From Nannocystis pusilla (GTDB lineage: Bacteria; Myxococcota_A; Polyangia; Nannocystales; Nannocystaceae): 39,184 nt of DNA. The position numbers were made by a program, and so were the translations under genes. The stretch's first letter is position 1. Each line of letters starts with the position of its first letter. Under the pieces are notes generated by a model. It made no database searches. It had not been told where the DNA came from and saw nothing but the letters and a program-made list of their open reading frames with translations. This document shows positions 6,763 to 39,184 of the stretch, one piece after another. The DNA is taken from assembly GCF_049337375.1 (NCBI RefSeq), contig NZ_JBMPIV010000015.1. One strand, given 5' to 3'.

Positions 6763-10013
<3,251 letters not shown>

Positions 10014-10019
10014 GGCTTA

Positions 10020-10745
10020 TCAGCGCTCCTTGATGTGGGTGCCGTCGAAGGTGTGGTCGTTGCCGATGGCCTTGTTGATGACGTCGCGGTGGGCGCTCAC
10101 GTCCCAGCCGAGGCGCGCGAGGCCGGTGAGGATCCGGGTGCGCAGGCGCAGCGAGTCCTCGGCGGGGTTGCCGAGGCGGGCGACCAGCGGGCCGAGCGAG
10201 CGCGGCTCGCCGATGTCGAGCAGCGCCTCGACCGCGAAGAAGCGCACGCCCTCGTCCGGGTCTTCGAGGTAGCCGGCGAGGATGTCCGGGACGCGCGCGT
10301 CGTCGATCTCCTGCAGGTGCGTGAGCAGCTGCAGCTTGGCGCTCGGGTCGCGCTCGTAGCCCGGCGGGTGGTGGGCCAGCAGCGCGTCGAGGATGTCCCA
10401 CTCCTGCTGCTTGCTCGCCAGCTCCTCGACCACCCGCAAGACCCAGGCGATGTTGTCGCTCTGGAGGCAGAACTCCTTGGCCGCCGGCAGCACGGTGTCG
10501 AGCGGGAGGCCGAGCAGGCGCTTGTACAGCCAGCCCTTCTCCTCCTCGTCCTCGATGGACTTGCTGGCGTTCATCGTGAACCGCTTCATCAGGCCGACGA
10601 TCGCCGGGATCTCGGCCATCTCCAGCAGCTGCTCCATCGCGTAGTAGCGGTCGGCCGACTGCGCGTACTGGTTCTGGACGGTCTTGATGTGCTTGTCGAG
10701 CTTGCTCTTGCTGCGACCCGCGCTGCTGAAGAGGTCCTTGAGTCC
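10020..10745 (-). CDS. HEAT-repeat protein (hypothetical)
   Basis: HEAT-like repeats (DPDEGVRFFAVEALLDIGEP). Putative GTG start at about 10745 preceded by GGGGA. The stop lies 7 bp upstream of the carB ATG. The remainder of ORF 10020..11729 is Arg-rich artefact. Confidence 0.5.
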   Translation of the reverse strand, partial: GLKDLFSSAGRSKSKLDKHIKTVQNQYAQSADRYYAMEQLLEMAEIPAIVGLMKRFTMNASKSIEDEEEKGWLYKRLLGLPLDTVLPAAKEFCLQSDNIAWVLRVVEELASKQQEWDILDALLAHHPPGYERDPSAKLQLLTHLQEIDDARVPDILAGYLEDPDEGVRFFAVEALLDIGEPRSLGPLVARLGNPAEDSLRLRTRILTGLARLGWDVSAHRDVINKAIGNDHTFDGTHIKER

Positions 10746-25825: not shown

Positions 25826-28800
25826 TCAGGTGGGCGCGCTGCCGTTGTACATCGCGCTCCACTGGGCGGGGCGGAGGATGGCCCGCGAGGCGAGGTACTG
25901 GTCGGCCTGGGCGATCAAGGTGGCGCCGCCGGGGCCCAGCAGCTCGCCGCGGCGGCGCCGGGCGCAGGCGGCGTGGACCGGCATGTCGGCGGTGTCGAAG
26001 CTGGCGGCGGCGGCCTCGAGGCGGACGAGCGCCTGCTGGATGTCGCCGTTCTGCGCGGCGATGCCGGCCCGGATCAGCGCGGCCATGGCGACGGAGTCGT
26101 GGCGCAGCGCGCGGTCCTCCTCGAGCTGGGCGGCGTCGCGTTCGGCGGCGGCGAGGAGGACGCCGGCGTTGTGCGGCTGCTCGCGGGCGGCCGCGACGGC
26201 GGCGAGGCCCCGCGCGTGGAGGAAGAGGATCCGCTGGCCCTGCCAGCCGAAGATGTACGAGTTCTCGACGGCGACCCAGTTCTCGGCCAGACGCTGCCAG
26301 GCGGAGCCACCTTGCCCTTGGTACAGGTCGCAAGAGGTCTCGAGGAGCAGCGCGAGCATGTGCTGGAAGTGGAAGCCGTCCTTCGACCAGCGGCGCATCG
26401 CCCCGCGCACGCGGTCGCGCGCGCTGGTGATGTCGTCGGCGCCGAGCAGCGCGTAGGCGCTGTAGAGCGCCGACCAGACCTCGCCGCATAGATCGCCGGC
26501 GTCCTCCGACTCGCGCAGCCAGGCGTGGGCGCGGTGGCCGAGCTCGGCCAGCTCGCCGAGCATGAACAGGCCGCGCATCGTGCTCATGCGGGCGAGGTCG
26601 AGCTCCCAGCCGACGCCGACGCAGCGGTCGAGCAGGATCTGGGCGCCCTGCTCGCAGTGCTCGAGCGCGCGGCGCCAGCGGCCGAGCGAGACGGCGGCGA
26701 TGGCGTCGACGATCTCGCACAGGCCGATGAGGCGCGGCTCCGAGAGCTGTTCGGCGAGGCGGCGCGCCTCCTTGAGCAGGGTGGTGCCGCGGCCGACGGC
26801 GTTGGCGGTGCCGCGGCTCATGATCATGGCGCCGACGCCGGCGAGGGCGCGGGCGATCCGCTGCGGCTCACCTGTCTGAAGGGCCAGGAGGAGACCGCGC
26901 TGGTAGAAGCTGTAGCCGCGGATCGGATCGACGAAGGCGAGGCCGACGGCGGCCGACAGGCACACGTCGAGGCGCAGCAGGTCGGCCGGCGGGACCTGCT
27001 CCTCGCGCACCGCGGCGAAGCCGAGGCCGCGCAGGCTGAGCTGCGTCGAGCGAGTGATGATCGACATGTTGGCGCGGCCGGGTGTGGCCGGGTAGCCGAG
27101 GTCGACCTCGACCAGCGCGGGGCGCAGCATCTGCACGCCCTGGTCGATGTTGCCGCTGACGAGGAACTGCTCGCCGGCGCGGCGGCGCAGCTCGAGTGAT
27201 TCGGCCGGCGAGGCGCCCTCGGCGGCGCTGGCGTAGACGGGGGCCGCTTCGGCGCTGCGACCGGCCAGCGCGAGCGCGTCGGCGCGGCGACGCAGGAGGG
27301 CGCGCCGCTCGTCGTCCGGGAGGTCGGACGCCCACGCGAGGGCGCGACCGTACAGCTGGGCGGCGCGGTAGAAGGCGAGTGAAGCGGCGGCCCGCTCGGC
27401 GGCGGCGACGGCGGCACCGTGCGCCTCCTTCAAGGCGCCGGCGGCGTGGAGGTGGTGCGCCAGCAGCTCGGGGTCGTCGGCCGACTGCGCGAGGGCGTCG
27501 GCGAGGGTGCGGTGCAGCTGCGCCAGGCGGTCGCCGCCGAGCTGCGCCAGCACGGTGTCGCGGATCCGGTCGTGGTAGCACTCGACGGTGTCGCCGCTGC
27601 GCGAGGCCAGCGTGCGCAGCAGGTGCTGCGCCTGCAGCTCGCCGAGGACCGCGCGATCGGTGACGCCCGAGGCCGTGAACGCGAGGCTCGGCGGGATCGG
27701 CCGCCCGGCGACGGCGACGATCTCGAGCAGGCTGCGACCGGCGGCGCGCAGGCCGGCGAGGCGGGTGCGCACGACCGCGTCGAGCGAGACCTCGGCCGGC
27801 GCGGCGCCGCGGTGACCGGCGATGTGACGCGCGAGCTCCTCGACGAACAGCGGGTTGCCGCCCGACTCGGCGGCGATCCGGCGCGCCTCGGCGCGCGCGC
27901 TGTCGCTGTCGCGGCCGAGCCGGGCGAGCGCGAGCTCCTCGGCCTGATCGGGCGAGAGCGGCTCGACCAGCAGGTCGCGCACCAGCGCCTTGAGCTCGGG
28001 CCGCGCGCCGAGCCGCCGCAGCTCGCGGAGCATCGGCGCGTCGTCCTCGTCGATGCGGTACGAGCCGATGAAGAGCATCGCCGGCGGATCGGGCGGCGAC
28101 AGCAGCTCGACCAGCAGGCGCGCGCTGTCCTCGTCGCCCCACTGCAGGTCGGCGATCCGCAGCACCAGCGGGCGGCGATCGGCGATCCTCGCCAGCAGCT
28201 CCTTGAGCCCGCGGAAGGCCCGACGCCGCGCCTCTTGCGGGTCGGGGGCGACGAAGTTGCGCTGCGGCAGATCGGCGACCACGGGGGCGCGCGCGAGGAC
28301 GGGGAACAGCCGCGTGAGCTCGTGGATCTCGCGCGGCAGCAGGGCCGCAGCCTCCTCCTGCGGGAGGTGGCGGAGGTGCTGCGCGAGCGCGTCGAGGACG
28401 CTGTCGAAGGCCTTGTACGGCACGCTCTCGCGCTCGTAGCAGCGGCCCTGGAGGACGAAGGCGCGGTCGTTGCGGCGCAGCTCGGCGATGAAGCGATCGA
28501 TGAGCGCGGTCTTGCCGATGCCGGAGCGGCCGCGGACGTACACGCATACCGGCGAGCCGGCGAGCGCGAGCTGGAAGGCGTCGCGCATGGCCGACAGCAG
28601 GTCGTCGCGGCCGACGAAGCGCGCGCCCGACTCGGTGGGCCCGAGCGGGGCCTCGCCGAGGGCCTCGCGGATGTCGGCGCCGCCGAGGCGCGCGGCCGGG
28701 TCGCGCTGCAGCAGGCCCATGCACAGCGCCGCCAGCTCCGGATCGACGTCGGGCACGAGCGCCTGCGGCGGCGCCGGATCTTCGTGCTGCTTGGCGTGGA

Positions 28801-29512
28801 GGATCGCGAGCGGCGGACCGGTGAACGGCAGGCGGCCGGTCAGCGCCTCGTAGAGCATGACGCCGATCGCGTACCAGTCGCTCGCGGGCGAGGCCGGGTT
28901 GCCGGCGGCCTGCTCCGGCGCCATCGTCGCCGGCGTGCCGAGCAGGCCGTCCTCGCCGCCCTCGGCGACGTCGTCGGCGGCGAGGCCGAAGTCGAGGATG
29001 ACGACGCGGCCGTCGGCGGTGACCAGCACGTTCGACGACTTGAGGTCGCGGTGCAGCTTGCCGGCGGCGTGCAGGGCGCTGACGCCGGCGGCCAGCTGCA
29101 GCAGGGCGGGGCGCAGGCGCTCCGGCGGCGGCGCTGCGCCTGGCCTTTCGGACATGCCCTGACGGACATGGTCGACGAAGCTGACGCCGTCGACGAACTC
29201 CATGGTGATGAACCACTCGTCGTCGTGCGAGACGAGCTGGTGGAGGCTGACGAGGTTCGGGTGCGACAGGCCGGCGGCGCTGCGGAACTCGTTCTTGAGG
29301 CGGAACAGCGCGCCCGGGTCGAGCTGGTGCAGGGTCTTGAGCGCGATGGTGCGGCCGCTGTCGCGGTCGACGGCCGCGTACACGACGCCCATGCTGCCGG
29401 AGCCGACCCGACGCACCAGCTCGTAGCGGCCGAGCGGACGCGGAAGGATGTCCTCAGGGACAGGTGGCGTCACCGGCAGCGAGGCGCGGGCCTGGGGCTC
29501 GTCGGGATTCAA
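25826..29512 (-). CDS. Ser/Thr protein kinase fused to an AAA/STAND NTPase and a C-terminal TPR/helical sensor region
   Basis: Hanks kinase motifs (GSGSMGVVYAA, HRDLKSSNVL, DFG, APE). Walker A GRSGIGKT. Long helical C-terminus. TTG start. 1228 aa. Confidence 0.8.
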   Translation of the reverse strand: MNPDEPQARASLPVTPPVPEDILPRPLGRYELVRRVGSGSMGVVYAAVDRDSGRTIALKTLHQLDPGALFRLKNEFRSAAGLSHPNLVSLHQLVSHDDEWFITMEFVDGVSFVDHVRQGMSERPGAAPPPERLRPALLQLAAGVSALHAAGKLHRDLKSSNVLVTADGRVVILDFGLAADDVAEGGEDGLLGTPATMAPEQAAGNPASPASDWYAIGVMLYEALTGRLPFTGPPLAILHAKQHEDPAPPQALVPDVDPELAALCMGLLQRDPAARLGGADIREALGEAPLGPTESGARFVGRDDLLSAMRDAFQLALAGSPVCVYVRGRSGIGKTALIDRFIAELRRNDRAFVLQGRCYERESVPYKAFDSVLDALAQHLRHLPQEEAAALLPREIHELTRLFPVLARAPVVADLPQRNFVAPDPQEARRRAFRGLKELLARIADRRPLVLRIADLQWGDEDSARLLVELLSPPDPPAMLFIGSYRIDEDDAPMLRELRRLGARPELKALVRDLLVEPLSPDQAEELALARLGRDSDSARAEARRIAAESGGNPLFVEELARHIAGHRGAAPAEVSLDAVVRTRLAGLRAAGRSLLEIVAVAGRPIPPSLAFTASGVTDRAVLGELQAQHLLRTLASRSGDTVECYHDRIRDTVLAQLGGDRLAQLHRTLADALAQSADDPELLAHHLHAAGALKEAHGAAVAAAERAAASLAFYRAAQLYGRALAWASDLPDDERRALLRRRADALALAGRSAEAAPVYASAAEGASPAESLELRRRAGEQFLVSGNIDQGVQMLRPALVEVDLGYPATPGRANMSIITRSTQLSLRGLGFAAVREEQVPPADLLRLDVCLSAAVGLAFVDPIRGYSFYQRGLLLALQTGEPQRIARALAGVGAMIMSRGTANAVGRGTTLLKEARRLAEQLSEPRLIGLCEIVDAIAAVSLGRWRRALEHCEQGAQILLDRCVGVGWELDLARMSTMRGLFMLGELAELGHRAHAWLRESEDAGDLCGEVWSALYSAYALLGADDITSARDRVRGAMRRWSKDGFHFQHMLALLLETSCDLYQGQGGSAWQRLAENWVAVENSYIFGWQGQRILFLHARGLAAVAAAREQPHNAGVLLAAAERDAAQLEEDRALRHDSVAMAALIRAGIAAQNGDIQQALVRLEAAAASFDTADMPVHAACARRRRGELLGPGGATLIAQADQYLASRAILRPAQWSAMYNGSAPT

Positions 29513-29525
29513 GGCGGAGCGTGGA

Positions 29526-30680
29526 TTATGCCACGCGCCCGGGGCCCGGGTCGCCGTCCGCGGGCAACGCCCCGGGCGGGACGCCGAGGCCGGGGCCGCA
29601 AAGCCGCGGCAGGTCGGGCGCGAGCCGCTCTTGGCTCCCCGGCGGCATCGGGTCGGCCCGCGTGAGCATGTGGGCGTCGAGGTCGGCCTCGTCGGCGAGG
29701 CGGGCCAGGGCGGCGCCGGCGGCGAGCCCGACGCGGGTCTCGATCATGCAGCCGACGAGCACCCGCAGGCCGCTGTCCCGGGCCGCGGCGATCGTCGCCA
29801 GGGCCGGCGAGATCCCGCCGCACTTCATCAGCTTGACGTTGATCCCCGCGACCCGGCCCCGCAGCGCCGCCACGTCGTCCGGGCCCTGCACGTCCTCGTC
29901 GGCGTAGATCGGCAACGGGCAGTCGCGCGCGAGCGCCGCGAGGAGGTCGGGCCGACCCGCAGGCAGCGGCTGCTCGAGCTGCTCGACCCCGAGATCGACC
30001 AGCAGCGGGAGCAGGGCGCGCACGTCGTCCGGGGTCCAGCCGCCGTTGGCGTCGACCCGCAGGCGGGCGCGCGGCGCGGCGGCGGCGACCGCACTCAGGG
30101 CGGCGCGGTCGAATTCGCGGCCCTTTCCGAGCTTGATCTTGAGCACCGGGAGGTGCGCGGCCGCGGCCGCGCGGGCCGCCATCGCCGGGAGCTCGTCGAG
30201 CGCGATCGTGTAGGAGGTGACGGTCGCCCCCGAGGTGGCCGAAAGGACATGGCGATCGAGACCTGCCCGATCGAGCACGTCGGGATCGGCCAGCAGCTCG
30301 GCCAGCGGGCGGCCGCAGGCGCGGGCGGCGGCGTCCCACAGGGCGGTGTCGACGGCGCAGCGAGCCGCGGAGTGGTCGGGGGCGAGCTCGCGCATGCGCG
30401 GGCCGGCGGCCGCGATCGCGCGCGGGTCGGCGAGGATCTCGGGGGAGAGCTCGGCCGCGATCGCGACCGCCAGCGGCGCGGCAGCGACCGCCGACTGACC
30501 GAGGTAGCGCACGGGCGAGGCCTCACCGAGGCCGCGGCGATCGGGGCCGTCCGCTCCTGCGCCGTCCGGGTCGCCCGGGTCGATGCGCACGAGCAAGCTC
30601 GGCAGTTCGCTCACGGTGCCGCGCGACAGGCCGAACGGGTGGCGCAGGCGGAGCGTGACGAGGGCGGTGCGCAGGTCCAT
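29526..30680 (-). CDS. Enolase-superfamily enzyme (MR/MLE subgroup; dipeptide epimerase / o-succinylbenzoate-synthase-like)
   Basis: KIKLGKG, DANGGWT, EQLEQP, ADE and KLMKCGG catalytic blocks. Internal ATG at 30680. Confidence 0.75.
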   Translation of the reverse strand: MDLRTALVTLRLRHPFGLSRGTVSELPSLLVRIDPGDPDGAGADGPDRRGLGEASPVRYLGQSAVAAAPLAVAIAAELSPEILADPRAIAAAGPRMRELAPDHSAARCAVDTALWDAAARACGRPLAELLADPDVLDRAGLDRHVLSATSGATVTSYTIALDELPAMAARAAAAAHLPVLKIKLGKGREFDRAALSAVAAAAPRARLRVDANGGWTPDDVRALLPLLVDLGVEQLEQPLPAGRPDLLAALARDCPLPIYADEDVQGPDDVAALRGRVAGINVKLMKCGGISPALATIAAARDSGLRVLVGCMIETRVGLAAGAALARLADEADLDAHMLTRADPMPPGSQERLAPDLPRLCGPGLGVPPGALPADGDPGPGRVA

Positions 30681-30732
30681 GCCGGCCGCCCCGGTGTACC
30701 ACCGCCGAGGCGCCATTGTATCGTGGCCCCGC

Positions 30733-32244
30733 ATGCCAGGTCGCCGCCCCGGAGGCTCGTCCCCCAGCGCCGCGCTCGAGCGGCTGTTCGACCGCGACTC
30801 CCCGCTCTCCTATGAGGAGCGGCTGGAGGCCCTCATCCGCGCGGCGCTGCCGGACCAGGTGCCGCGGCTGTCGTTCGGCGACGAGCTGGCGCGCGGCGGG
30901 ATGGGCTCGGTGCGGCTCGCGTTCGACGAGGTGCTGCAGCGGCGGATGGCCGCCAAGGTCATGCACGCCAAGACCTACGACCACCTGATGCTCGTGCACG
31001 GGTTCTTGCGCGAGGCCCAGGTGACCGGTCAGCTCGACCACCCCAACATCGTGCCGATCCACGAGCTCGGGCGCGACGAGCAGGGCCAGCTCTACTTCAC
31101 GATGAAGCTGGTCGAGGGCCAGAGCCTGAAGGCGCTGATCGGCGGCGAACCGGCGACCGACCACGAGCGGCTGTTCCACCGCCTCGAGATCTTCGTCAAG
31201 GTGTGCGACGCGCTGTCGTTCGCCCACAGCCGCGGGGTGATCCACTGCGACATCAAGTCGGCCAACGTGATGGTCGGCGCCTACGGCCAGGTCTATCTGA
31301 TGGACTGGGGCGGGGCCCAGATCCTGCCGCTGCGGTCCGCGGAAGACGAGGCGCGGTGGGTCCGCGACGCCCTGCCGCCGCTGCCGCCGTCGGAGACCGA
31401 CGGGCTGGTGTTCGGCACGCCGTCGTACATGTCGCCCGAGCAGGCCAACAGCCATCCGCTCGATGAGCGGGCCGACGTGTTCTCGATGGGCGCGCTGCTC
31501 TACGAGATGATGGCCGGGCGTCCGCCGTACCAGGCGCGCACGGCGATGGACGCGCTGATCCTCGCGCGCGAGGCGAAGTTCGCCCCGCCCGACAGCCACG
31601 TCGCGGTGCCGTTCCCGCGGGAGCTGGTGCGCATCGTGACCCGGGCGCTGCGCCGCGACCCCGACGATCGCTACCCGAGCGTGGCGGCGCTGCAGGCCGA
31701 CATCGTCCGCCTGCTGCGCGGCAGCGGCAGCTTCCAGACGGTCCGCTTCGCCGCCGGCGACCACGTGATCCGCGAGGGCGAGATCGGCGACGCGGCCTAC
31801 ATCGTGCTGGCCGGCAGGCTCGAGGTCTACAAGCTCGAGGCCGGGCACCACGTGTCGCTGCGCTGGCTCGGGCCGGGCGACGTGTTCGGCGAGACGTCGA
31901 TCTTCGCCGCCTCGCGCCGGACCGCCAGCGTGCTGGTCGTCGAGGACGCGACGCTCACCAAGATCACCAGCGACCTGATCGAGGAGGAGCTGACGTCGAT
32001 GAAGCCGTGGATGGGCGCGTTCGTGCGCACCCTGGCGGCCCGCTTCGCCGGCGTCGAGGGCCGCGGGTCGCGGACCGCCCCCGTCGAGGGCCCGCCGGGC
32101 TCGGTCGCGCCGCGCTCGGTCCCGCCGATCCCGCCGCCGACCAGCTCGGGCGGCGAGAGCGTGATCATCGACATCGACGAGCCGCTCGACGAGAGCATCG
32201 ACGGCAGCGACATGCACGCGACGCTGCTGGCCCGCCGCGACTGA
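30733..32244 (+). CDS. Ser/Thr protein kinase with a C-terminal cyclic-nucleotide-binding domain
   Basis: Kinase motifs (HCDIKSANVM, DWG, SPEQ). C-terminal cNMP-binding domain (FAAGDHVIREGEIGDAAYIVLAGRLEVY...GPGDVFGETS...RTASVLVVED). ATG at 30733, 52 bp from the divergent enolase-family start. Confidence 0.8.
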   Translation: MPGRRPGGSSPSAALERLFDRDSPLSYEERLEALIRAALPDQVPRLSFGDELARGGMGSVRLAFDEVLQRRMAAKVMHAKTYDHLMLVHGFLREAQVTGQLDHPNIVPIHELGRDEQGQLYFTMKLVEGQSLKALIGGEPATDHERLFHRLEIFVKVCDALSFAHSRGVIHCDIKSANVMVGAYGQVYLMDWGGAQILPLRSAEDEARWVRDALPPLPPSETDGLVFGTPSYMSPEQANSHPLDERADVFSMGALLYEMMAGRPPYQARTAMDALILAREAKFAPPDSHVAVPFPRELVRIVTRALRRDPDDRYPSVAALQADIVRLLRGSGSFQTVRFAAGDHVIREGEIGDAAYIVLAGRLEVYKLEAGHHVSLRWLGPGDVFGETSIFAASRRTASVLVVEDATLTKITSDLIEEELTSMKPWMGAFVRTLAARFAGVEGRGSRTAPVEGPPGSVAPRSVPPIPPPTSSGGESVIIDIDEPLDESIDGSDMHATLLARRD

Positions 32245-32400: not shown

Positions 32401-33627
32401 TCAGGCCCGCGCGGGCAGGGAGTCGAGCAGCTCTTGCAGCGCGCGCGGCAGGGCGGTGAAGCGGACCACCGCGCGGCCCGGGCCGGCGGCGACGACCTTG
32501 GCGTAGGCGTCGACGCCGGGCAGGGCGGCGAGGACGAGCTTGAGGTCGGCGCGCAGCGGCAGCGAGGCGGCGACGCGCAGCTCGGCGTTGTGGCGCTCGT
32601 CGTGGGCCACGAGCAGGGCCGGGAACTCCTGGCCGCCGGTGTCCTTGCCCTCGAGCGCCGTGAATACGAGCGGCTGCGGCTCGGCCAGGACCCGCCACTC
32701 GGCGGCCTCTTCGATCATGTGGATGGCGAACGGGCCGTCGACGCCGGTGACGTCGTGGATCGTGATCGGCTCGCGCACGCCCTTGGGCCGGACCTCGAAG
32801 CAGCCGCGGGTGCGGAGGCGGTCGCCGAGGGCTCGCGCGGCCGACTCGGAGATCAGCACCTGGCCGCCGACGGTGTAGCTCTCGATGCGCGAGGTCAGGT
32901 TGACGTGGCGGCCGACCACGCCGTACTTGGCGCGGCGGTTCGAGCCGATGTTGCCGACCACGACCTCGCCGGTGTGGACGCCGATGCCCATCTCGAGCGC
33001 GGGCAGGCCGTGCTCGGCTAGCTCGGCGTTGACGCGGCCCATCGCCCGCTGCATGGCGATCGCGCAGGCGACCGCGCGCTCGGGGTGGTCGTCCTGCGGC
33101 ACCGGGGCGCCGAACACCGCGAGGATGGCGTCGCCGATGAACTCGTTGATCGAGCCGCGGTACTCGCCGATCACGTCGGCCATGGCGCCGAGGTAGATGT
33201 TGAGGATCGCCACCACCTGCTCGGGGCCCAATCCCTCGCACAGGGTCGAGAAGCCGCGCAGGTCGGAGATCAGGATCGTCAGGGTGCGCCGCTCGCCGCC
33301 GAGCTGGCGGCCCTCCGGCGAGGCGAGCAAGGTGTTGACGACCTCGTCGGTGACGTGGCGGCCGAACACCTGGCGGATGAAGGTGTTGCGCAGCTCGAGC
33401 TCGACCACCAGGGCCTCGACTTGCTCGATCTTGACGGCCAGCTGCTCCTCGATCTCGTTGGCGTGCTCGAGCGTCGAGTCGTGCAGCAGCACCAGGTCGT
33501 CGTGCTCGGCCTGCAGCGCGGCGACGGCGGCCATGAACTCGGCGCGCGCGGCCGGGTCGGCCAGGAGCTCGGCCGCGGCGTCGGGGTCGGCGAGGGCTCG
33601 CCGCCAGCGCGGGTCATCCGTGAGCAT
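32401..33627 (-). CDS. Class III adenylate/guanylate cyclase with an N-terminal coiled-coil (signalling helix) region
   Basis: CHD motifs ILISDLRGFSTL, FIGDAILAVFG, GIGVHTGEVVVGNIG and RAKYGVVGRHVNLTSRIES. About 150-aa helical N-terminus. The start is 13 bp after the stop of the SiaC-like gene. Confidence 0.85.
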   Translation of the reverse strand: MLTDDPRWRRALADPDAAAELLADPAARAEFMAAVAALQAEHDDLVLLHDSTLEHANEIEEQLAVKIEQVEALVVELELRNTFIRQVFGRHVTDEVVNTLLASPEGRQLGGERRTLTILISDLRGFSTLCEGLGPEQVVAILNIYLGAMADVIGEYRGSINEFIGDAILAVFGAPVPQDDHPERAVACAIAMQRAMGRVNAELAEHGLPALEMGIGVHTGEVVVGNIGSNRRAKYGVVGRHVNLTSRIESYTVGGQVLISESAARALGDRLRTRGCFEVRPKGVREPITIHDVTGVDGPFAIHMIEEAAEWRVLAEPQPLVFTALEGKDTGGQEFPALLVAHDERHNAELRVAASLPLRADLKLVLAALPGVDAYAKVVAAGPGRAVVRFTALPRALQELLDSLPARA

Positions 33628-33640
33628 GCGGGCGGCCGGC

Positions 33641-34015
33641 TCAGTCGAGGGCGATGACGATCGTCGGCAGGAATTTCTTGAGGTTGGGCAGCGACTTGCC
33701 CTGCCACGGGATGGTCGACGAGCCGTGGACCTTGATCTCGGTCTCGCCCTTCTTGCGCGCGGCGATGGCGAACTTGTAGAGCATGTTGATGCCCGAGCTG
33801 TTCAGGAACTGCAGCTCGGTCATGCGCAGGCCGAGCGCGGGGCTTTCCAGCAGGACGCGGTCGAGCAGGTCCTCGATCGGCTTGTACTCGCTGGTGCTGA
33901 GGCGGAGCACGCCCTCGAAGTGGACCGTGCGCGCGGGCGCGTCGAACCACACGCGATAGCCGGGGCCTTTGATGTCGGTGTCCGACCCGGAGGGTCGCGT
34001 AGTTGTGTCCGTCAT
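33641..34015 (-). CDS. DUF1987 / SiaC-like partner-switch protein
   Basis: 124 aa. FEGVLRLSTSEYKPIEDLL and LRMTELQFLNSSGINMLYKF align with the two conserved DUF1987/SiaC blocks (as recalled: GDSYPENSY...IDWV and LRLLYLNTSSIKAM). ATGA overlap with the upstream kinase gene. Confidence 0.65.
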   Translation of the reverse strand: MTDTTTRPSGSDTDIKGPGYRVWFDAPARTVHFEGVLRLSTSEYKPIEDLLDRVLLESPALGLRMTELQFLNSSGINMLYKFAIAARKKGETEIKVHGSSTIPWQGKSLPNLKKFLPTIVIALD

Positions 34016-34575
34016 GACGATTTCACCTGTAGCCGGGCGGCGGTCTTGAGGAGCGCGTTGTCAGGATTGCCAGGGGCGGGGTCGAAGCGCCAGCCGAGCC
34101 GGGCCTTGTAGTCCGACAGCATGGTGAGAAAGCCCAGGCCCGAGGTCGTGAGTTCGGGGTTGGCGGCGTTCTCCTCGACCCGCTGCATCAGGAGCTCGGC
34201 GGGATCGCCGTCGAGCAGCTCGGCGAACTTGACCCGCAGGCCGTCGACCGCGTCGCCGCACACCTGGTTGCTGACGACGACCACGAACTCGCCCGCCTCG
34301 ACGCCTGCGTCGATGACGACGGTGCCGCCGGCGCAGAACTTGACCGCGTTCTCGATCAGCTCGTTGAGCACGTAGCCGACGCTGCCGACGAAGTCGCGCC
34401 GCTCGGCCTCCTCGGTGAGCCCGCCCTCGCCGACGTCGACGAAGTACTCGGCGAAGAAGTCGGCCGCCACGCTGCACTGGTTCCACTTGACCGGGAACGC
34501 CCCGGGGTAGAACGTCAGCATGACGCGCGGTCCAGCGTCGGTGGGCTCTTTGTACTCGCCGATGATGCCGTCCAT
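34012..34575 (-). CDS. SiaB-like GHKL-fold (RsbW-type) Ser/Thr kinase
   Basis: Internal ATG at 34575 with GGAGAG Shine-Dalgarno. N-box LNELIENAVKF. 187 aa. The N-terminal 53 aa of the ORF-track frame are Arg/Gly artefact. Confidence 0.65.
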   Translation of the reverse strand: MDGIIGEYKEPTDAGPRVMLTFYPGAFPVKWNQCSVAADFFAEYFVDVGEGGLTEEAERRDFVGSVGYVLNELIENAVKFCAGGTVVIDAGVEAGEFVVVVSNQVCGDAVDGLRVKFAELLDGDPAELLMQRVEENAANPELTTSGLGFLTMLSDYKARLGWRFDPAPGNPDNALLKTAARLQVKSS

Positions 34576-34598: not shown

Positions 34599-36959
34599 TC
34601 AGCGCCGCTTGATCACCACCGTCGTGATGTCGTCGAAGACCTTCTGCGCGCCGATGAAGCGCATGACGTCGTCGACGATCGCCTGCTTGATGTCCGCCGC
34701 CGGCCGCTCGTGGACCCGGCGCACGACCTCGCACAGGCGGTCGATGCCGTACTGCTCGCCGTGGATGTCCTCCGCCTCGGTTATGCCGTCAGTGTACAGG
34801 ACGACGACATCGCCCGGCGACAGGCGCAGCTCGGTGCGGGCGATGAACGCGGCGATGTCGACCTCGAGGCCCACCGGCATGCCGAGGTCGACCGTGTCGA
34901 TGCGCTCGATCGAGCCGCCCCGCCGGACCACCACCGCCTCCTCGTGCTGCCCGGTGAGGCGCAGCACGCCCTGCGCGTAGTCGAGGAGCACCAGCGTCGC
35001 GGTGCGGTCGAGGCCGACGCGCTGGATGTTCTGGTAGAGGACCTTGTTGACGATGTTGAGGAAGCGCTCCGCGTCGCGCTCCTCGGCGGCCTGCAGGGTG
35101 CGCACGGCCGTCTGGATCATCAGCATCAGCACGCCGCTCTCGAGGCCGTGGCCGGTGACGTCGCCGATGCCGATCTTGACGCCGTCGCCGGCGCGCAGGA
35201 CGTCGTAGTAGTCGCCGCCGACCTCGTCCGCGGGGCGCATGTAGCCGGCGACGTCCAGGCCCTCGAGCTCGGCCAGCTCGCGCTCCTGCGGCAGCACCAT
35301 GAGCTGCAGCCGGCGGGCGACGTCGAGCTCGGCGCCGAGCCGCAGGTTCTCCTGCTTGAGCCGCTCGTTGAGCGCCATGATCTCGCGGGAGGCCCGCTGC
35401 AGCTCGGCGGTGCGCTGCTCGACCAGGCGCTCGAGGTCGTGCGTATACGCGCGGATCTCGGCGGCCATCTGGTTGAAGGCGCGGCCGAGCGCGCCGAACT
35501 CGTCGTCGCTGCGCACTTCGACCCGCACGTCGTAGTCCTTCTGCGCGATCTTGCCGGCGCCCGCGGCGAGGTCGACCAGCGCGCCGGTCATGCGCCGCGA
35601 GACCAGGAGGATCCCGAACATCACGACGGCGAGCGCGACCAATGTGATGACGACCTGGCTGCTGAGGATCCCGCGGCTGCTGGCGGCGATGGTGTCCTGC
35701 GCCTTATGGAGCGAGGCGTAGATCTCGGCGGCCGGCACGACGAAGCCGAGGGTCCAGCGCTCCGGCACGATGTCGGTCGAACCCGACCAGACGTTGAACG
35801 GATCGAGCCGCTTGAGCACGACGACGTAGTCCTTGCCGCCGATCGCTACCGGGTCGCGATAGTCGACGGTGTCGCCGCCGGGCAGCGCGAGCGCCCGGAT
35901 GGCCGGGTCGCGCGACTGGTGCAGGAACTGCTGAAAGATGTCGACGCCGGCGCCCGACGAGCCGCTGGCCTGCTGCAGGCCGAGGATCTCCTGCCCGTCG
36001 GCGTTGACGGCGAACACGTTGCCGTTCTCCTGGGCGAGGAAGGCGAAGCCCGAGCCGGCGAGCTCGAGGTCCTGGACGTAGCGGATCAGTTGGCCGAGGG
36101 TGACGTCGACGCCGACGGCCCCGGCGAAGCGCGCGCGCGAGGCGTCCCACAGCGGCTGAAACATGGTCATGATGGCCCCGCTGCCGCCCGCGTCGGTGTA
36201 CGGCGCGGTGCCGGTGACCTGCGCCGCCGGGTCGCGCATGCGCGCGGGGTCGGCGAGCCAGCGCCGCCAGCCGTCGACGATGCCGGGGAAGTAGAAGCCC
36301 CAGAACGGGCTCTTGTTGTGGCCGGGATAGAGTCGATCGGCGTGGCCGGCTGCGTCGGCGTAGGGGGCGATCCGCAGGTACTCGGCGCCCTCGGGGCCGA
36401 TGAAGTACATGGCCTGCTTCTCGGCCCCGTACTGCAGCAGCGCGGGCAGCAGGAGGTCGAGCAGGGCGGTCTGCTCGACCGCGGCGCGGACCTCGGGCTT
36501 GATGTCCCGAAGGCCAGGTTGATTCGGATCGGCCGGTGCGTGCAGGTAGCCCCACACGGCCACCGCCGACGCCTCGCCGGCCTCGGTCTGCGACCAGTCG
36601 CCCCGCGGGTCGTAGACGAGGGCGTCGCGCAGCGGGCCGGCGGCAGCAGCGGCGGCGGTCAGCGGCGCGAGGTCGGCCTGCTTGTCGATGAGCGTCTGGG
36701 TGACCGCCGCGAGCACGCCGAGCTCGGCCCGCGCCCGCCCGCGCAGGAATTCGACGCGCTGCGCGGTGTCCTCGATGTGGTTGGTGAGGTACTCGCGGCT
36801 GGCCCGCTCGAGGCCCTTGCGGATCTCCTCGGACGCGTCGCCGCCGAGCACGCGGATGCCCTGCAGCGAGGCCAGCGCCGCGAGCGTCAGCCCGATGACC
36901 AGCCCGACCCCGGCGACGAGGACGAACTTGGTGCGGAACTTTGAGCCCTTGGTGGCCAT
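34599..36959 (-). CDS. SiaA-like membrane sensor PP2C (SpoIIE/RsbU-type) phosphatase with periplasmic domain and HAMP
   Basis: TM1 (res 12-30), about 400-aa periplasmic domain, TM2, HAMP plus coiled coil, PP2C motifs (GGDYYDV, GDVTGHG, YTDGITEA, FDDIT). Confidence 0.85.
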   Translation of the reverse strand: MATKGSKFRTKFVLVAGVGLVIGLTLAALASLQGIRVLGGDASEEIRKGLERASREYLTNHIEDTAQRVEFLRGRARAELGVLAAVTQTLIDKQADLAPLTAAAAAAGPLRDALVYDPRGDWSQTEAGEASAVAVWGYLHAPADPNQPGLRDIKPEVRAAVEQTALLDLLLPALLQYGAEKQAMYFIGPEGAEYLRIAPYADAAGHADRLYPGHNKSPFWGFYFPGIVDGWRRWLADPARMRDPAAQVTGTAPYTDAGGSGAIMTMFQPLWDASRARFAGAVGVDVTLGQLIRYVQDLELAGSGFAFLAQENGNVFAVNADGQEILGLQQASGSSGAGVDIFQQFLHQSRDPAIRALALPGGDTVDYRDPVAIGGKDYVVVLKRLDPFNVWSGSTDIVPERWTLGFVVPAAEIYASLHKAQDTIAASSRGILSSQVVITLVALAVVMFGILLVSRRMTGALVDLAAGAGKIAQKDYDVRVEVRSDDEFGALGRAFNQMAAEIRAYTHDLERLVEQRTAELQRASREIMALNERLKQENLRLGAELDVARRLQLMVLPQERELAELEGLDVAGYMRPADEVGGDYYDVLRAGDGVKIGIGDVTGHGLESGVLMLMIQTAVRTLQAAEERDAERFLNIVNKVLYQNIQRVGLDRTATLVLLDYAQGVLRLTGQHEEAVVVRRGGSIERIDTVDLGMPVGLEVDIAAFIARTELRLSPGDVVVLYTDGITEAEDIHGEQYGIDRLCEVVRRVHERPAADIKQAIVDDVMRFIGAQKVFDDITTVVIKRR

Positions 36960-36980: not shown

Positions 36981-38153
36981 TCAGCGCTCCGGTTTGCGGC
37001 CGGAGGCGACGTAGATCGGCCAGGTGGCGAAGCCGCGGCGGCTGCGGATCGCGTAGACGTGATCGCGGAAGCCCATGCGCAGGCGCTCGACCACCTCCGG
37101 CGGCTGCTGCGTGGCGGTCGACAGCTCGCCGGTGACGTACTCCTCCCAGCTCTCGATCACCCGCGCGAAGTCGTCGATCGCGGTGTTGTTGTTGGTGATC
37201 GGGATCTGCTCCATGCGCACGTCCTCGAGGCCCATGTCGGTGAGCTGCGAGAACATCTTGGGCCCGAAGTTCATGTCCATGCCGAGGCTCTGGGCGATCT
37301 TCACGGCCTGCTGGTAGGTCCACGCGACCGACTCGTGGCGCGGGTAGCCGTAGTTGTGCGCCGTCATCTCGTTGGTCAGGTAGACCCGACCGCCGGGTTT
37401 ACAGATCCGCACCAGCTCGCGCAAGATGCTCGACGGGTCGTTGAAGATCTGCAGCGCCAGGCGCGAGGTGACGAAGTCGAAGCTGTTCGACGGCAAGAAC
37501 AGGTGGGTCGCGTCGCCGAACTGATACTCGATGTCGGTGATGCCGAACTCGCGGGCCATCTGCTGCGCGTATTGGAGGAAGGGCCGCGAGTGGTCGACGC
37601 CGACGATGTACGCGGGCTCGAACTCCTTGTAGACGAGCACCGCGAAGTCGCCGATCCCGCAGCAGATGTCGGCGATCCGCATGTGCTTGCCGAGGCCGTG
37701 GCGGCGCAGCAGCTCGCGCTCGTGCGACCACACGATGTTGGTCTGAGTCCGCAGGACCGGCACGAGCTGGTCGTTCTCGATGACGCCCTGGCCGGGGTAA
37801 AACGCCTTGTCGTACTGCTCGACGATGGTGTTGCCGAACTGCGCGCCGAGGAAGCCGAACCGCAGCGGCGCCCACGGGACGACGCTCGAGACGACGAGCT
37901 TGAGCTTGAGGCCCGGGTGGCGCTCGGCGCAGGCGGCGATGAAGCGCGCGAGCTCGAGGAAGCCGGTGTGGTTGAGGTAACGCAGGCGCTTGAAGTTGAG
38001 GTAGAGGACGCCGCGCACGGCGTCGGCGGCGTGGTCGAGGCGCGCCCGCACCGGCGCGAACGCCTCGGGGCCGGCGGGCCGCAGCGTCCCCTCGAGCGCG
38101 ACCTCCTGGTCGTTCTCGCTAAAGCGGATCGAAAACGGTTGCTCGTTCTCCAT
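36981..38153 (-). CDS. DUF1987/SiaC-like N-terminal domain fused to a class I SAM-dependent methyltransferase
   Basis: Residues 1-110 (ALEGTLRP...VLYLNFKRLRYLNHTGFLELARFI) match the same two DUF1987 blocks as CDS 33641..34015. The C-terminal half has MTase motif I (ADICCGIGDFAV) and a post-I/II region (ICKPGGRVYL). Confidence 0.7.
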   Translation of the reverse strand: MENEQPFSIRFSENDQEVALEGTLRPAGPEAFAPVRARLDHAADAVRGVLYLNFKRLRYLNHTGFLELARFIAACAERHPGLKLKLVVSSVVPWAPLRFGFLGAQFGNTIVEQYDKAFYPGQGVIENDQLVPVLRTQTNIVWSHERELLRRHGLGKHMRIADICCGIGDFAVLVYKEFEPAYIVGVDHSRPFLQYAQQMAREFGITDIEYQFGDATHLFLPSNSFDFVTSRLALQIFNDPSSILRELVRICKPGGRVYLTNEMTAHNYGYPRHESVAWTYQQAVKIAQSLGMDMNFGPKMFSQLTDMGLEDVRMEQIPITNNNTAIDDFARVIESWEEYVTGELSTATQQPPEVVERLRMGFRDHVYAIRSRRGFATWPIYVASGRKPER

Positions 38154-38165
38154 ACCCAGCTCGGC

Positions 38166-38672
38166 TCACTCGTGCGGGACGGTAAGGACGATGACGCCGA
38201 CGCCGTCGCCCTCGCGCAGCGCGAGCTCGACGCCGTGGAGCGCGACCAATTCGAGCAGCCCGACCTCGGCCGGCGGACGCAGGATCATCGACTCGAACTC
38301 GGCCTCGTAGCGAGCGCGCGCGTCCGCCGGCGCGACCCGCCCGAGGTCGTCGCGCAGCCGCTGCGCGAGCGCCTCGTCGGTCGGTATCGTCAGCTCGGCG
38401 ATCACGTGCTCGTCGGTGCGCCCGACCTCGACCACGATCTCGCCCTCGCTCGGCCGGGCGCGGAACACGTACTCGAGCACCTCGTTGAGATAGGTCGAGA
38501 GGCGCGTGGTCAGCTGCTCGGGATCGAAGCGATCGGAGGCGACGAAGCGCGCGATGTAATCGGCCAGCCGCTGGCAGTGCGTCCAGCTGTCATAGAGGCC
38601 GCGGACGCTGATCCGGAGGGTGAGGATCGGGCTCGGGCCGGGAGGTGAGGGGGGCGCGAGGTCGGAGGTCAT
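38166..38672 (-). CDS. SiaB-like paralog with a degenerate ATP-binding N-box (candidate pseudokinase / binding partner)
   Basis: Co-linear similarity with CDS 34012..34575 (LTLRISV..C..LADYIARFV...STYLNEVLEYVFRA), but the N-box Asn is replaced (ELIENAVKF versus EVLEYVFRA). The start is uncertain: ATG at 38672 or GTG at 38708. Confidence 0.45.
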   Translation of the reverse strand: MTSDLAPPSPPGPSPILTLRISVRGLYDSWTHCQRLADYIARFVASDRFDPEQLTTRLSTYLNEVLEYVFRARPSEGEIVVEVGRTDEHVIAELTIPTDEALAQRLRDDLGRVAPADARARYEAEFESMILRPPAEVGLLELVALHGVELALREGDGVGVIVLTVPHE

Positions 38673-38940
38673 GCCGGGGCGAGGGCGGGAGAGGGGCAGC
38701 AGGCGCACCTCGCCCGGATCCGGGCACGGACGGCGCCTCGGTTCACGGTATCACGAAGCCGTCGCGGCCGGCCGCGAGCCGCGGACGCGTGGCCGGACGC
38801 AGGGGCGCGCCGGAGCCCGGGTCCGCGCGCGGACGTGCGCCGGCGCAGACGGCCCGCGCGGGCGCGAAAAAAGCTCGCGGGCCTCGGGAACAAGCCCCAA
38901 AGGGCCGTGTCCGAGGCGCCACACGACCGGGGCAAGGACG

Positions 38941-39184
38941 ATGACAACGACCAAGACGCTCGCCATCAAAGTCTTTTACGGCGATCAGCTCGTCGATACG
39001 CAGACGCTGACGCAAGACGTTATCAAGATCGGAAAACTGAAGAGTAGCCACATCTGTCTGGATGACGAGGCCGTGGCCCGCATGCACGCCGTGATCGAGG
39101 TGTCCGGCGAAGAGGTGCGGGTGATCGATCTCGGGAGCGCGGCGGGCACCGTGCTCAACGGCCAGCGGATCGACAAGAACGCGG
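38941..39184 (+). CDS. FHA-domain protein, N-terminal part; the gene continues past the window end
   Basis: MTTTKTLAIKVFYGDQLVDTQTLTQDVIKIGKLKSSHICLDDEAVARMHAVIEVSGEEVRVIDLGSAAGTVLNGQRI is a canonical FHA fold signature (R..H, S, NGT-like, NG). AAGGA Shine-Dalgarno before the ATG. Confidence 0.7.
   Translation, partial: MTTTKTLAIKVFYGDQLVDTQTLTQDVIKIGKLKSSHICLDDEAVARMHAVIEVSGEEVRVIDLGSAAGTVLNGQRIDKNA

Follow-up and report, generated by a model that had tools for sequence, protein, structure and literature searches.

A predicted partner-switching cassette in Nannocystis pusilla with a kinase-like protein lacking ATP-binding motifs and a STAS-like domain fused to a putative methyltransferase

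The DNA analysed here, referred to below as the window, is a stretch of 39,184 nucleotides (nt) from Nannocystis pusilla (RefSeq assembly GCF_049337375.1, contig NZ_JBMPIV010000015.1), and our subject is a cluster of six open reading frames (ORFs) within it, which we call genes A to F. All six lie on the minus strand, in the order A-B-C-D-E-F, with gaps of at most ~25 nt. Gene A (38166..38672) encodes 168 amino acids (aa) counted from an ATG, its longest ORF extending to 38708, and its product appears to be a pseudo-kinase paralogue of D, with a kinase fold and without ATP-binding motifs. Gene B (36981..38153; 390 aa) follows after a spacer of 12 nt and joins a STAS-like N-terminal domain to a putative S-adenosylmethionine (SAM) methyltransferase. 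Gene C (34599..36959; 786 aa) encodes a predicted membrane sensor phosphatase of dCache-HAMP-PP2C architecture. Gene D (34012..34575; 187 aa) encodes a kinase-like protein of the slr1658 superfamily with an N-box (E71, N75) and a G2 box (S-G-L-G), and gene E (33641..34015; 124 aa), which shares an ATGA overlap with D, a STAS-like protein of the slr1659 superfamily carrying N72-S73-S74-G75. The start of D is Met54 of its longest ORF, chosen from the family consensus M....G; the NCBI call for D in N. pusilla is a 169-aa version. Gene F (32401..33627; 408 aa), a class III adenylate/guanylate cyclase, is the last gene of the same-strand cluster. A preliminary description of this DNA, made from the sequence without database searches, had drawn attention to A and B, and two tightly packed minus-strand genes are indeed found there.

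That description had aligned A co-linearly with D, a relationship which our comparisons bear out. BLASTP gives a weak co-linear match in which LNEVLEYVFRA of A stands opposite LNELIENAVKF of D, at an identity of only ~20%. Profiles of the two families, built from alignments of 26-28 diverse loci, match one another in hhalign with 98% probability (E=1.6e-13, 156 columns), and iterated searches seeded with A or with D return the same set of ORFs. The NCBIfam model slr1658_superfam (NF047703) scores A at 36 bits (E about 4e-9 to 5e-9) against a cut-off of 100; it is significant in 24 of 26 A-family members, each of them under the curated cut-off, and Pfam finds nothing on A at E<=0.01. By these matches A is a divergent slr1658 paralogue and not a member of the superfamily under the curated rule, so that the label "SiaB-like" under which it was introduced is approximate. 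A model of A computed by AlphaFold with Nannocystaceae homologues as the only alignment input (predicted local distance difference test, pLDDT, 86.8; predicted template modelling score, pTM, 0.81) has a fold of the SiaB/RsbW/SpoIIAB type in a structure search, with the alpha/beta arrangement of Bergerat type, and its second-best structural match is UsfX.

The nucleotide-binding motifs of this fold are degenerate in A. Its N-box (38457..38489, minus strand) reads L62-N-E-V-L-E-Y68-V-F-R-A72 in the register given by both BLASTP and hhalign; Glu64 is retained, and the Asn position is occupied by Tyr68 here and varies across the A family, whose consensus is LNELLExAFR. In the family alignment the G1 position is Ile95 and the G2 box is replaced by GLLEL. 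Both the N-box Asn and the G2 box are missing throughout the A family, beyond the window protein, and the loss of nucleotide-binding motifs is, on this alignment evidence, a trait of the family rather than a quirk of one sequence. The preliminary description had reported the loss of the N-box Asn alone, in a register which is upheld here. A would be unable to bind ATP in the canonical manner, and a non-catalytic binding role, proposed earlier as that of a sequestering partner, is the natural reading of its sequence.

Gene B is a genuine fusion, as the preliminary description had it. Its product matches methyltransferase models of Pfam as well as slr1659_superfam (NF047705), and full-length relatives at 47-55% identity occur across phyla, in Sorangium, Chthoniobacter, Inquilinus, many rhizobia, Roseibium/Labrenzia, Rhodanobacteraceae, Competibacteraceae and a metagenome-assembled genome (MAG) of Anaerolineales. 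An artefact of gene fusion was considered and excluded, the fusion and its invariant linker being conserved in 80 genomes. The N-terminal domain (aa 1-113; 37815..38153) is of slr1659 type: residues 5-94 score 42-46 bits (E 8e-11 to 5.6e-12) against the superfamily model, whose cut-off is 100, and the model matches 27 of 27 B N-domains, all below that cut-off. Because A and B fall short of the curated cut-offs, they go unnamed in public annotation, which offers "hypothetical protein" for A and "methyltransferase domain-containing protein" for B. Plain BLASTP of B against E finds nothing and profiles are required; the E-family profile aligns in hhalign with B residues 3-115 (97.6%, E=4.5e-12), and iterated searches seeded with E or with B return the same ORFs. 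Pfam detects nothing on residues 1-115 at E<=0.01, STAS and STAS_2 are found weakly among the 27 B N-domains, the latter in 3 of them, and a profile of the domain (hereafter B-N) weakly matches STAS chains of MlaB type. In an AlphaFold-type model of B (pLDDT 90.5, pTM 0.81), residues 7-113 follow the order beta-beta-alpha-beta-alpha-beta-alpha-beta, which fits the secondary-structure order of STAS domains, and helix alpha2 opens with residues 61-63, at the place of the STAS phospho-site. The preliminary description had called this domain DUF1987 (SiaC-like). That label does not hold, since the corresponding Pfam model (PF09345) matches 0 of 27 B-family N-domains at E<=1, the window protein being likewise negative. 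On the profile evidence, the domain appears to be a divergent member of the STAS superfamily, of slr1659 type, and not SiaC/DUF1987.

At the phospho-site itself B carries N61-H62-T63-G64 (37962..37973), aligned with N-S-S-G of E and with D-S58-S-G of SpoIIAA. Across 173 distinct B N-domains, position 61 is Asn in 159. Position 62, the equivalent of SpoIIAA Ser58 and His62 here, is Asn (88), His (59), Phe (14) or Tyr (4) in 165, while a hydroxyl residue, Ser or Thr, occurs there in 4 sequences. At position 63 the residue is Val in 43, Thr in 42 (24%), Ala in 34, Ile in 24, Leu in 17 and Arg in 10, and position 64 is Ala or Gly. The family motif is N-[NH]-x-[AG], of which the window's N-H-T-G is one form. 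As judged from this alignment, the canonical acceptor of B is replaced and Thr63 is incidental. The sole conserved hydroxyl residues of the domain are S89 and S90, within a SSVVPW motif which corresponds to GSxxIPW of E and lies in the loop before helix alpha3.

These counts bear directly on the model put forward in the preliminary description, by which D would phosphorylate Thr63 of B and C would dephosphorylate it, the methyltransferase being controlled intramolecularly by the phospho-state of its own N-terminal domain while A sequesters the unphosphorylated form. A threonine is present in the window protein, at the N-terminus of helix alpha2 and in the region of STAS and SiaC phospho-sites (SiaC T68, PMC7647112), and an active-looking kinase and phosphatase are encoded within the same operon. 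However, Thr63 lies one residue after the phospho-Ser position and alternates with Val, Ala, Ile, Leu and Arg; as it is not conserved, a function common to the family cannot depend on it. The paralogue E, moreover, keeps its acceptor invariantly. We consider intramolecular control of this kind very improbable.

The remainder of B (aa 114-390; 36981..37814) consists of a linker (YDxxFYPGQ) and a class I SAM methyltransferase with a helical cap. Residues 128-270 match class I SAM-methyltransferase models of Pfam above their cut-offs (Methyltransf_11, 69.6 bits), and the features of the class are present, namely the Rossmann fold, motif I (residues 162-168, D-I-C-C-G-I-G; 37660..37680), an acidic residue after beta2, and motif II/III. 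Invariant across phyla are D162, G166 and G168 of motif I, D187, G213-D214-A215 and F225-D226-F227, together with many residues of the cap and Y114-D115-x-x-F118-Y119-P120-x-Q122 of the linker. Such invariance of SAM motifs, cap and linker speaks for a functional enzyme that has a definite substrate, and we regard the methyltransferase as putatively active. Motif I is unusual in that a Cys-Cys pair stands where the first Gly and a small residue would be expected. Of the two, C165 is invariant and C164 is present in at least 90% of relatives.

In structure searches the nearest structure to B is 3mgg, an uncharacterised archaeal enzyme; the near ones also include LahSB (a peptide carboxylate methyltransferase) and N-, O- and S-methyltransferases of natural products, and among the names are the thiol S-methyltransferases TmtA and GtmA, OxaG, phosphoethanolamine N-methyltransferases, and UbiG. 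B would accordingly appear to belong among small-molecule or peptide methyltransferases, and the search goes this far towards the substrate class which the preliminary description had hoped to narrow by such means. Stand-alone relatives of the methyltransferase, of ~270-290 aa, exist; they are nameless and their gene neighbourhoods are uninformative as to substrate. Identity as a quinone methyltransferase of UbiE/MenG type was considered and rejected, with B scoring 63-71 bits against equivalog and subfamily cut-offs of 158-420 bits. Public labels of B relatives as UbiE/MenG (by the Joint Genome Institute) or as "quinone methyltransferase" (in Sorangium So ce56) are, on these scores, unsupported.

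A methyltransferase within a signalling operon may also serve adaptation. CheR methylates chemoreceptors, and the input portion of C is chemoreceptor-like (dCache-HAMP), so that B could be a feedback enzyme which methylates a component of its own system, for instance the sensor phosphatase C or the cyclase, with A and the STAS-like domain merely docking it. Among its near structural relatives LahSB methylates a peptide carboxylate, and in Bacillus cereus the methyltransferase RsbM has been suggested to methylate the sensor RsbK upstream of a partner switch (cited in PMC10950880). B is, by contrast, of the small-molecule UbiE/Methyltransf_11 type and not of the CheR type, no methyl-accepting motif came to light in C, though no search was aimed at one, and we think a feedback role decidedly unlikely.

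Unlike A and B, genes D and E look canonical. D passes the slr1658_superfam cut-off with 141.8 bits and E that of slr1659_superfam (likewise 100) with 123.9 bits. Against the SiaB family model (NF038262) D reaches 23 bits, under the cut-off of 85, and no protein of the cluster passes a Sia family cut-off in NCBIfam or matches SiaC/DUF1987 of Pfam at E<=0.01. In profile alignments E71 and N75 of the D family stand opposite E46 and N50 of SpoIIAB and the N-box of histidine kinases. N102 of D falls opposite Asp81 at G1 of SpoIIAB; DxGxG is absent, and the G2 box is kept. The Asn at the adenine-binding G1 Asp position is common to the whole D (slr1658) family, and its kinase chemistry may be unusual; SiaB, too, has been termed an unusual kinase (PMC7278518). 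N-S-S-G is invariant in the E family, and a profile search of the PDB, matching SpoIIAA and RsfB, places N72-S73-S74-G75 over D-S58-S-G of SpoIIAA. Pfam finds STAS in 27 of 28 E-family members, STAS_2 in 16 and SiaC weakly in 15 (best E 9e-4). When the PDB was searched with profiles of D, E and B-N, neither SiaB nor SiaC ever came up; there were only weak matches, to histidine-kinase N-boxes, SpoIIAA/RsfB and MlaB.

In Sorangium, D and E form one fusion protein of 305 aa, with ENAVKF, GSGLG and LNSSG intact, a Rosetta-stone confirmation that the two work together. The fusion is encoded at 9697..10614 of the locus of Sorangium cellulosum So ce56 and recurs in six further loci of our set (L028-L033). 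The Sorangium cassette is also expanded: behind the D-E fusion come one more PP2C (329 aa), one additional gene each of D-like and E-like type, and a protein of PAS-GAF-STAS architecture.

For the remaining two genes of the cluster the assignments come from Pfam: C matches SpoIIE (8.7e-39), HAMP (3e-13) and, weakly, dCache_1, and F matches Guanylate_cyc (4e-26). The NCBIfam SiaA model scores C at 116 bits (cut-off 700), a likeness confined to its C-terminal half.

The preliminary description had also raised the question of how widely the fusion is distributed. Relatives of B are encoded in 419 of the species-representative genomes scanned. We counted the cassette in the 80 best loci from sampled species genomes, and in 71 of these genomes A-B-C-D-E is complete and in order, spanning Myxococcota, Alpha- and Gammaproteobacteria, Verrucomicrobiota and Chloroflexota, and hence at least four named phyla. 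Incomplete loci mostly reflect contig ends or failures of ORF extraction; three Nannocystis MAGs have a divergent PP2C gene. In these MAGs (L011-L013) A-B-D-E-F occurs without the in-line dCache-HAMP-PP2C gene, and a short PP2C (~309 aa) lies divergently upstream together with an extra D-like/E-like pair. One locus (L071), of rhizobial type and with an upstream GGDEF-EAL gene, comes from a record named "Mycobacterium sp. KBS0706", the sole actinobacterial record among the 80, and its organism label may be wrong. In a library of 1.84 billion representatives the B profile retrieves 37 clusters at E<=1e-30, a handful of them full length, indicating a family that is compact in sequence space.

While the five genes stay together, the flanking genes vary. 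A class III cyclase is encoded within 8 kb in 44 of the 80 loci, and in 21 (in rhizobia, Labrys and others) A is directly preceded by a GGDEF-EAL gene, in 20 cases on the same strand; in all, 65 loci have a neighbouring gene for a nucleotide cyclase or a GGDEF-EAL protein. A shares 4 nt with B in 43 of 76 loci. Translational coupling was entertained as evidence specific to A and B and then dropped, all junctions of the operon being equally tight.

Co-variation among the partners was gauged by a mirror-tree test on pairwise sequence distances from 70 complete loci, and again from 38 non-redundant loci. The raw correlations were highest between A and B-N (0.92) and between D and E (0.91) in the 70 loci; B-N correlated less with its own methyltransferase domain (0.75) than with A. 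Partial Mantel correlations were then computed, in which the distances of the methyltransferase and PP2C domains were controlled for. Here A with B-N gave 0.67 (p=0.001) in the 70 loci and 0.42 in the 38, and D with E 0.68 (p=0.001) and 0.50. B-N with D followed at 0.42 and 0.37, and A with D at 0.29 and 0.20. The crossed pairs were close to zero, with A and E at 0.04 (not significant) and 0.07 and B-N and E at 0.09 (not significant) and 0.04. These values, which are indirect evidence, are consistent with A:B and D:E as putative cognate pairs, with some contact between B and D in addition.

Two other arrangements may be weighed against the same values. In the first, A would be a kinase-dead paralogue which forms a heterodimer with D and tunes or blocks it, the STAS-like domain of B being a pseudo-substrate of D and not a partner of A. 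RsbW-type proteins are dimeric, RsbW3 of Mycobacterium smegmatis acts on RsbW1 in this manner, through a heterodimer that has been described (PMC10950880), and the partial correlations of D with both A and B-N lie above zero. Yet A co-varies far more with B-N than with D, to which it is, as noted, only distantly similar, and we hold such a heterodimer to be unlikely. In the second, A and B would constitute a two-subunit enzyme which is merely co-transcribed with C-D-E, no partners being exchanged between the pairs. Neither protein seems fit for phosphotransfer, and both correlate with E at about zero. The pair MlaB-MlaF, in which a STAS domain is a permanent subunit, is a precedent for which the weak matches of B-N to MlaB-type chains may be relevant. 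What speaks against a constitutive enzyme is that the five genes are kept in the same order across phyla while their flanks change, which would be difficult to account for if nothing linked them in function; cyanobacterial systems of slr1658 type, furthermore, work without A and B, which makes the pair look like an add-on to the switch. We find this second arrangement doubtful to a similar degree.

The reading we prefer, albeit tentatively and at slightly less than an even chance, is that A and B arose as the duplicate of a kinase/STAS pair, a duplicate which works without phosphorylation and couples the partner switch of C, D and E to a methyltransferase. The duplicate would be an ancient copy of D and E in which phosphotransfer was lost on both sides, through the ATP site of A and the acceptor of B, and in which B became fused to the methyltransferase; it is this paired loss that suggests independence from phosphorylation. 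By homology, C would sense an extracytoplasmic ligand and set the phospho-state of Ser73 of E against the kinase D, a step for which SiaABC, RsbU/V/W and systems like them are precedents (PMC7647112, PMC8457831). A would be a stable regulatory subunit, bound to the STAS-like domain of B by the surfaces at which kinase and substrate once met and with no need of phosphorylation, as the paired loss of motifs and the co-evolution suggest.

How the state of the switch might reach the methyltransferase is more speculative. The phospho-state of E, and not that of B, could be relayed through competition among paralogous partners, most likely with D that is free of E competing with A for the non-phosphorylatable domain of B, which would then take the place held by the sigma factor in classical systems. 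The switch may have two outputs. One would be the methylation of a peptide or small molecule; the other, cyclic-nucleotide synthesis, would fall to the neighbouring enzyme, which is a class III cyclase in Nannocystis, GGDEF-EAL in rhizobia and GGDEF in Synechocystis. SiaC and HsbA are precedents for the control of cyclases by STAS-like proteins (PMC8457831). The fuller scheme, in which a partner switch targets a methyltransferase, the dead A holding a pseudo-substrate domain and swapping with the live D according to the phospho-state of E, such that an extracytoplasmic signal received by the dCache-PP2C protein is converted into methylation of a metabolite or protein in parallel with cyclic-nucleotide synthesis, strikes us as possible rather than probable.

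Several points weigh against the reading of A and B as a phosphorylation-independent duplicate. Firstly, D is itself atypical at G1 (Asn, and no DxGxG), and its kinase activity is no more than plausible. Secondly, the mirror-tree signal can mirror shared rate shifts, and it drops in the non-redundant loci for both putative pairs. Thirdly, the 4-nt overlap of A and B is unspecific, the whole operon being tightly packed. Structure searches with B return methyltransferases, the STAS fold predicted for its N-terminal domain resting on sequence and on the order of secondary-structure elements, and the best structural relative of B indicates no substrate, being uncharacterised. In B, moreover, phosphorylation might take place at a non-canonical site, the conserved S89 and S90. 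Finally, all contacts and all catalysis in the scheme are predicted.

The surroundings of the cluster may be described briefly. Between A and a divergent FHA-domain gene lies an intergenic region (38673..38943) which we presume to hold the promoter of the cluster; neither a sigma-70-like site nor an Rfam family was detected in it, and searches for a riboswitch or other RNA element, a promoter or a terminator detected none. The FHA-domain gene starts at 38944 (38944..39184, plus strand; FHA 6e-14), runs past the end of the window and shares the 270-nt intergenic region with A. Directly downstream of F, and convergent with it, a fusion of a Ser/Thr protein kinase with a cyclic-nucleotide-binding domain (30583..32244, plus strand; Pkinase 2e-37, cNMP_binding 1e-17) is a candidate receptor for the product of the cyclase. 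Beyond it lie a gene of the enolase superfamily (MR/MLE; 29526..30734, minus strand) and a large Ser/Thr kinase that also carries an AAA_16 ATPase domain (25826..29512, minus strand; a 1228-aa ORF), a typical myxobacterial signalling gene. The DNA of the locus is 98.3% identical to that of N. pusilla Na p29 and 98.0% to that of Nannocystis sp. RBIL2. Relative to the window, the Na p29 record, the closest public genome, has 13 gap openings over a stretch of 7.2 kb, and the ORF call splits or extends gene C there (907 + 290 aa), probably through assembly indels in that record.

Partner switching, in which a PP2C phosphatase, an RsbW-like kinase and a STAS protein act together, is a major logic of bacterial signalling, and to our knowledge its targets are sigma factors, diguanylate cyclases and few others. 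If our reading is true, the cassette would add a different class of enzyme to the outputs of such switches; under the fuller scheme above it would be the first partner switch with a methyltransferase as its regulated target. It would also give a clear example from nature of a pseudo-kinase matched with a pseudo-substrate, both descended from a live pair which the operon itself encodes. In the literature we searched (on slr1658/slr1659, on SiaB/SiaC/DUF1987, and on STAS domains with methyltransferases, partner switching or pseudokinases) neither the fusion nor the A/B pair is described, and the assertion of the preliminary description that a methyltransferase output was new to Sia-like systems stands within that literature, for these and for other partner-switching systems. 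At least several hundred species carry the cassette, among them tractable rhizobia (Sinorhizobium medicae, Mesorhizobium, Rhizobium) as well as Sorangium cellulosum, and the proposal is hence directly testable. Present annotations of A and B, from "hypothetical protein" and "methyltransferase domain-containing protein" to "quinone methyltransferase" and "UbiE", are uninformative or misleading.

Among known systems, the nearest in logic may be compared in turn. SiaABCD of Pseudomonas aeruginosa comprises a HAMP-PP2C phosphatase (SiaA), a kinase (SiaB), a DUF1987 phospho-protein (SiaC) and a diguanylate cyclase (SiaD). The Nannocystis proteins lie below the Sia cut-offs, the sensor input is dCache, the cyclase is of class III and not GGDEF, and there is a second, seemingly dead kinase/STAS pair with a methyltransferase, which SiaABCD is without. 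The slr1658/slr1659 pair of Synechocystis and other cyanobacteria (NF047703, NF047705) is closer, in that D and E pass both cut-offs and likewise adjoin a PP2C gene and a gene of nucleotide-cyclase type; in Synechocystis the adjoining gene product, Slr1657, belongs to the GGDEF proteins (PMC10124867). Recovery after iron starvation is influenced by Slr1658 (Zer et al. 2018, as cited in PMC7555055). The cyanobacterial slr1658-type locus which we examined consists of Amt-PAS-PP2C, a D-like and an E-like gene, with no A/B pair. In that of a Geitlerinemataceae cyanobacterium (L086, 5068..7563) the PP2C is fused to the ammonium transporter and PAS domain in a single protein of 831 aa, where a second assembly (L087) has two genes called.

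In the mycobacterial SigF switch (UsfX/RsbW1, RsbW2, RsbW3, RsfA, RsfB) roles are likewise split among RsbW paralogues, one of which in M. smegmatis is a binder, another solely a kinase and a third an antagonist without kinase function, and RsfA is a STAS antagonist that is not controlled by phosphorylation (PMC10950880). That switch targets a sigma factor, whereas the Nannocystis cluster encodes none and its seemingly non-phosphorylatable STAS-like domain is fused to an enzyme. SpoIIAB/SpoIIAA and RsbW/RsbV of Bacillus have the same folds, with N-S-S-G of E equivalent to D-S58-S-G of SpoIIAA and E71/N75 of D to E46/N50 of SpoIIAB. They differ from the present system in that D has Asn at the G1 Asp, A is without nucleotide-binding motifs, and the output here is predicted to be one or more enzymes rather than transcription. 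RsbM of B. cereus, a methyltransferase suggested to act in a partner-switch pathway, is, unlike B, of CheR type, and it would act on the sensor (PMC10950880). With UbiE and MenG, B shares the class I Rossmann architecture and the Methyltransf_11 group, at scores far below the equivalog cut-offs. The components of the cassette are thus of known kinds, and it is the duplicate of an apparently dead kinase and dead STAS domain, joined to a methyltransferase, that is new.

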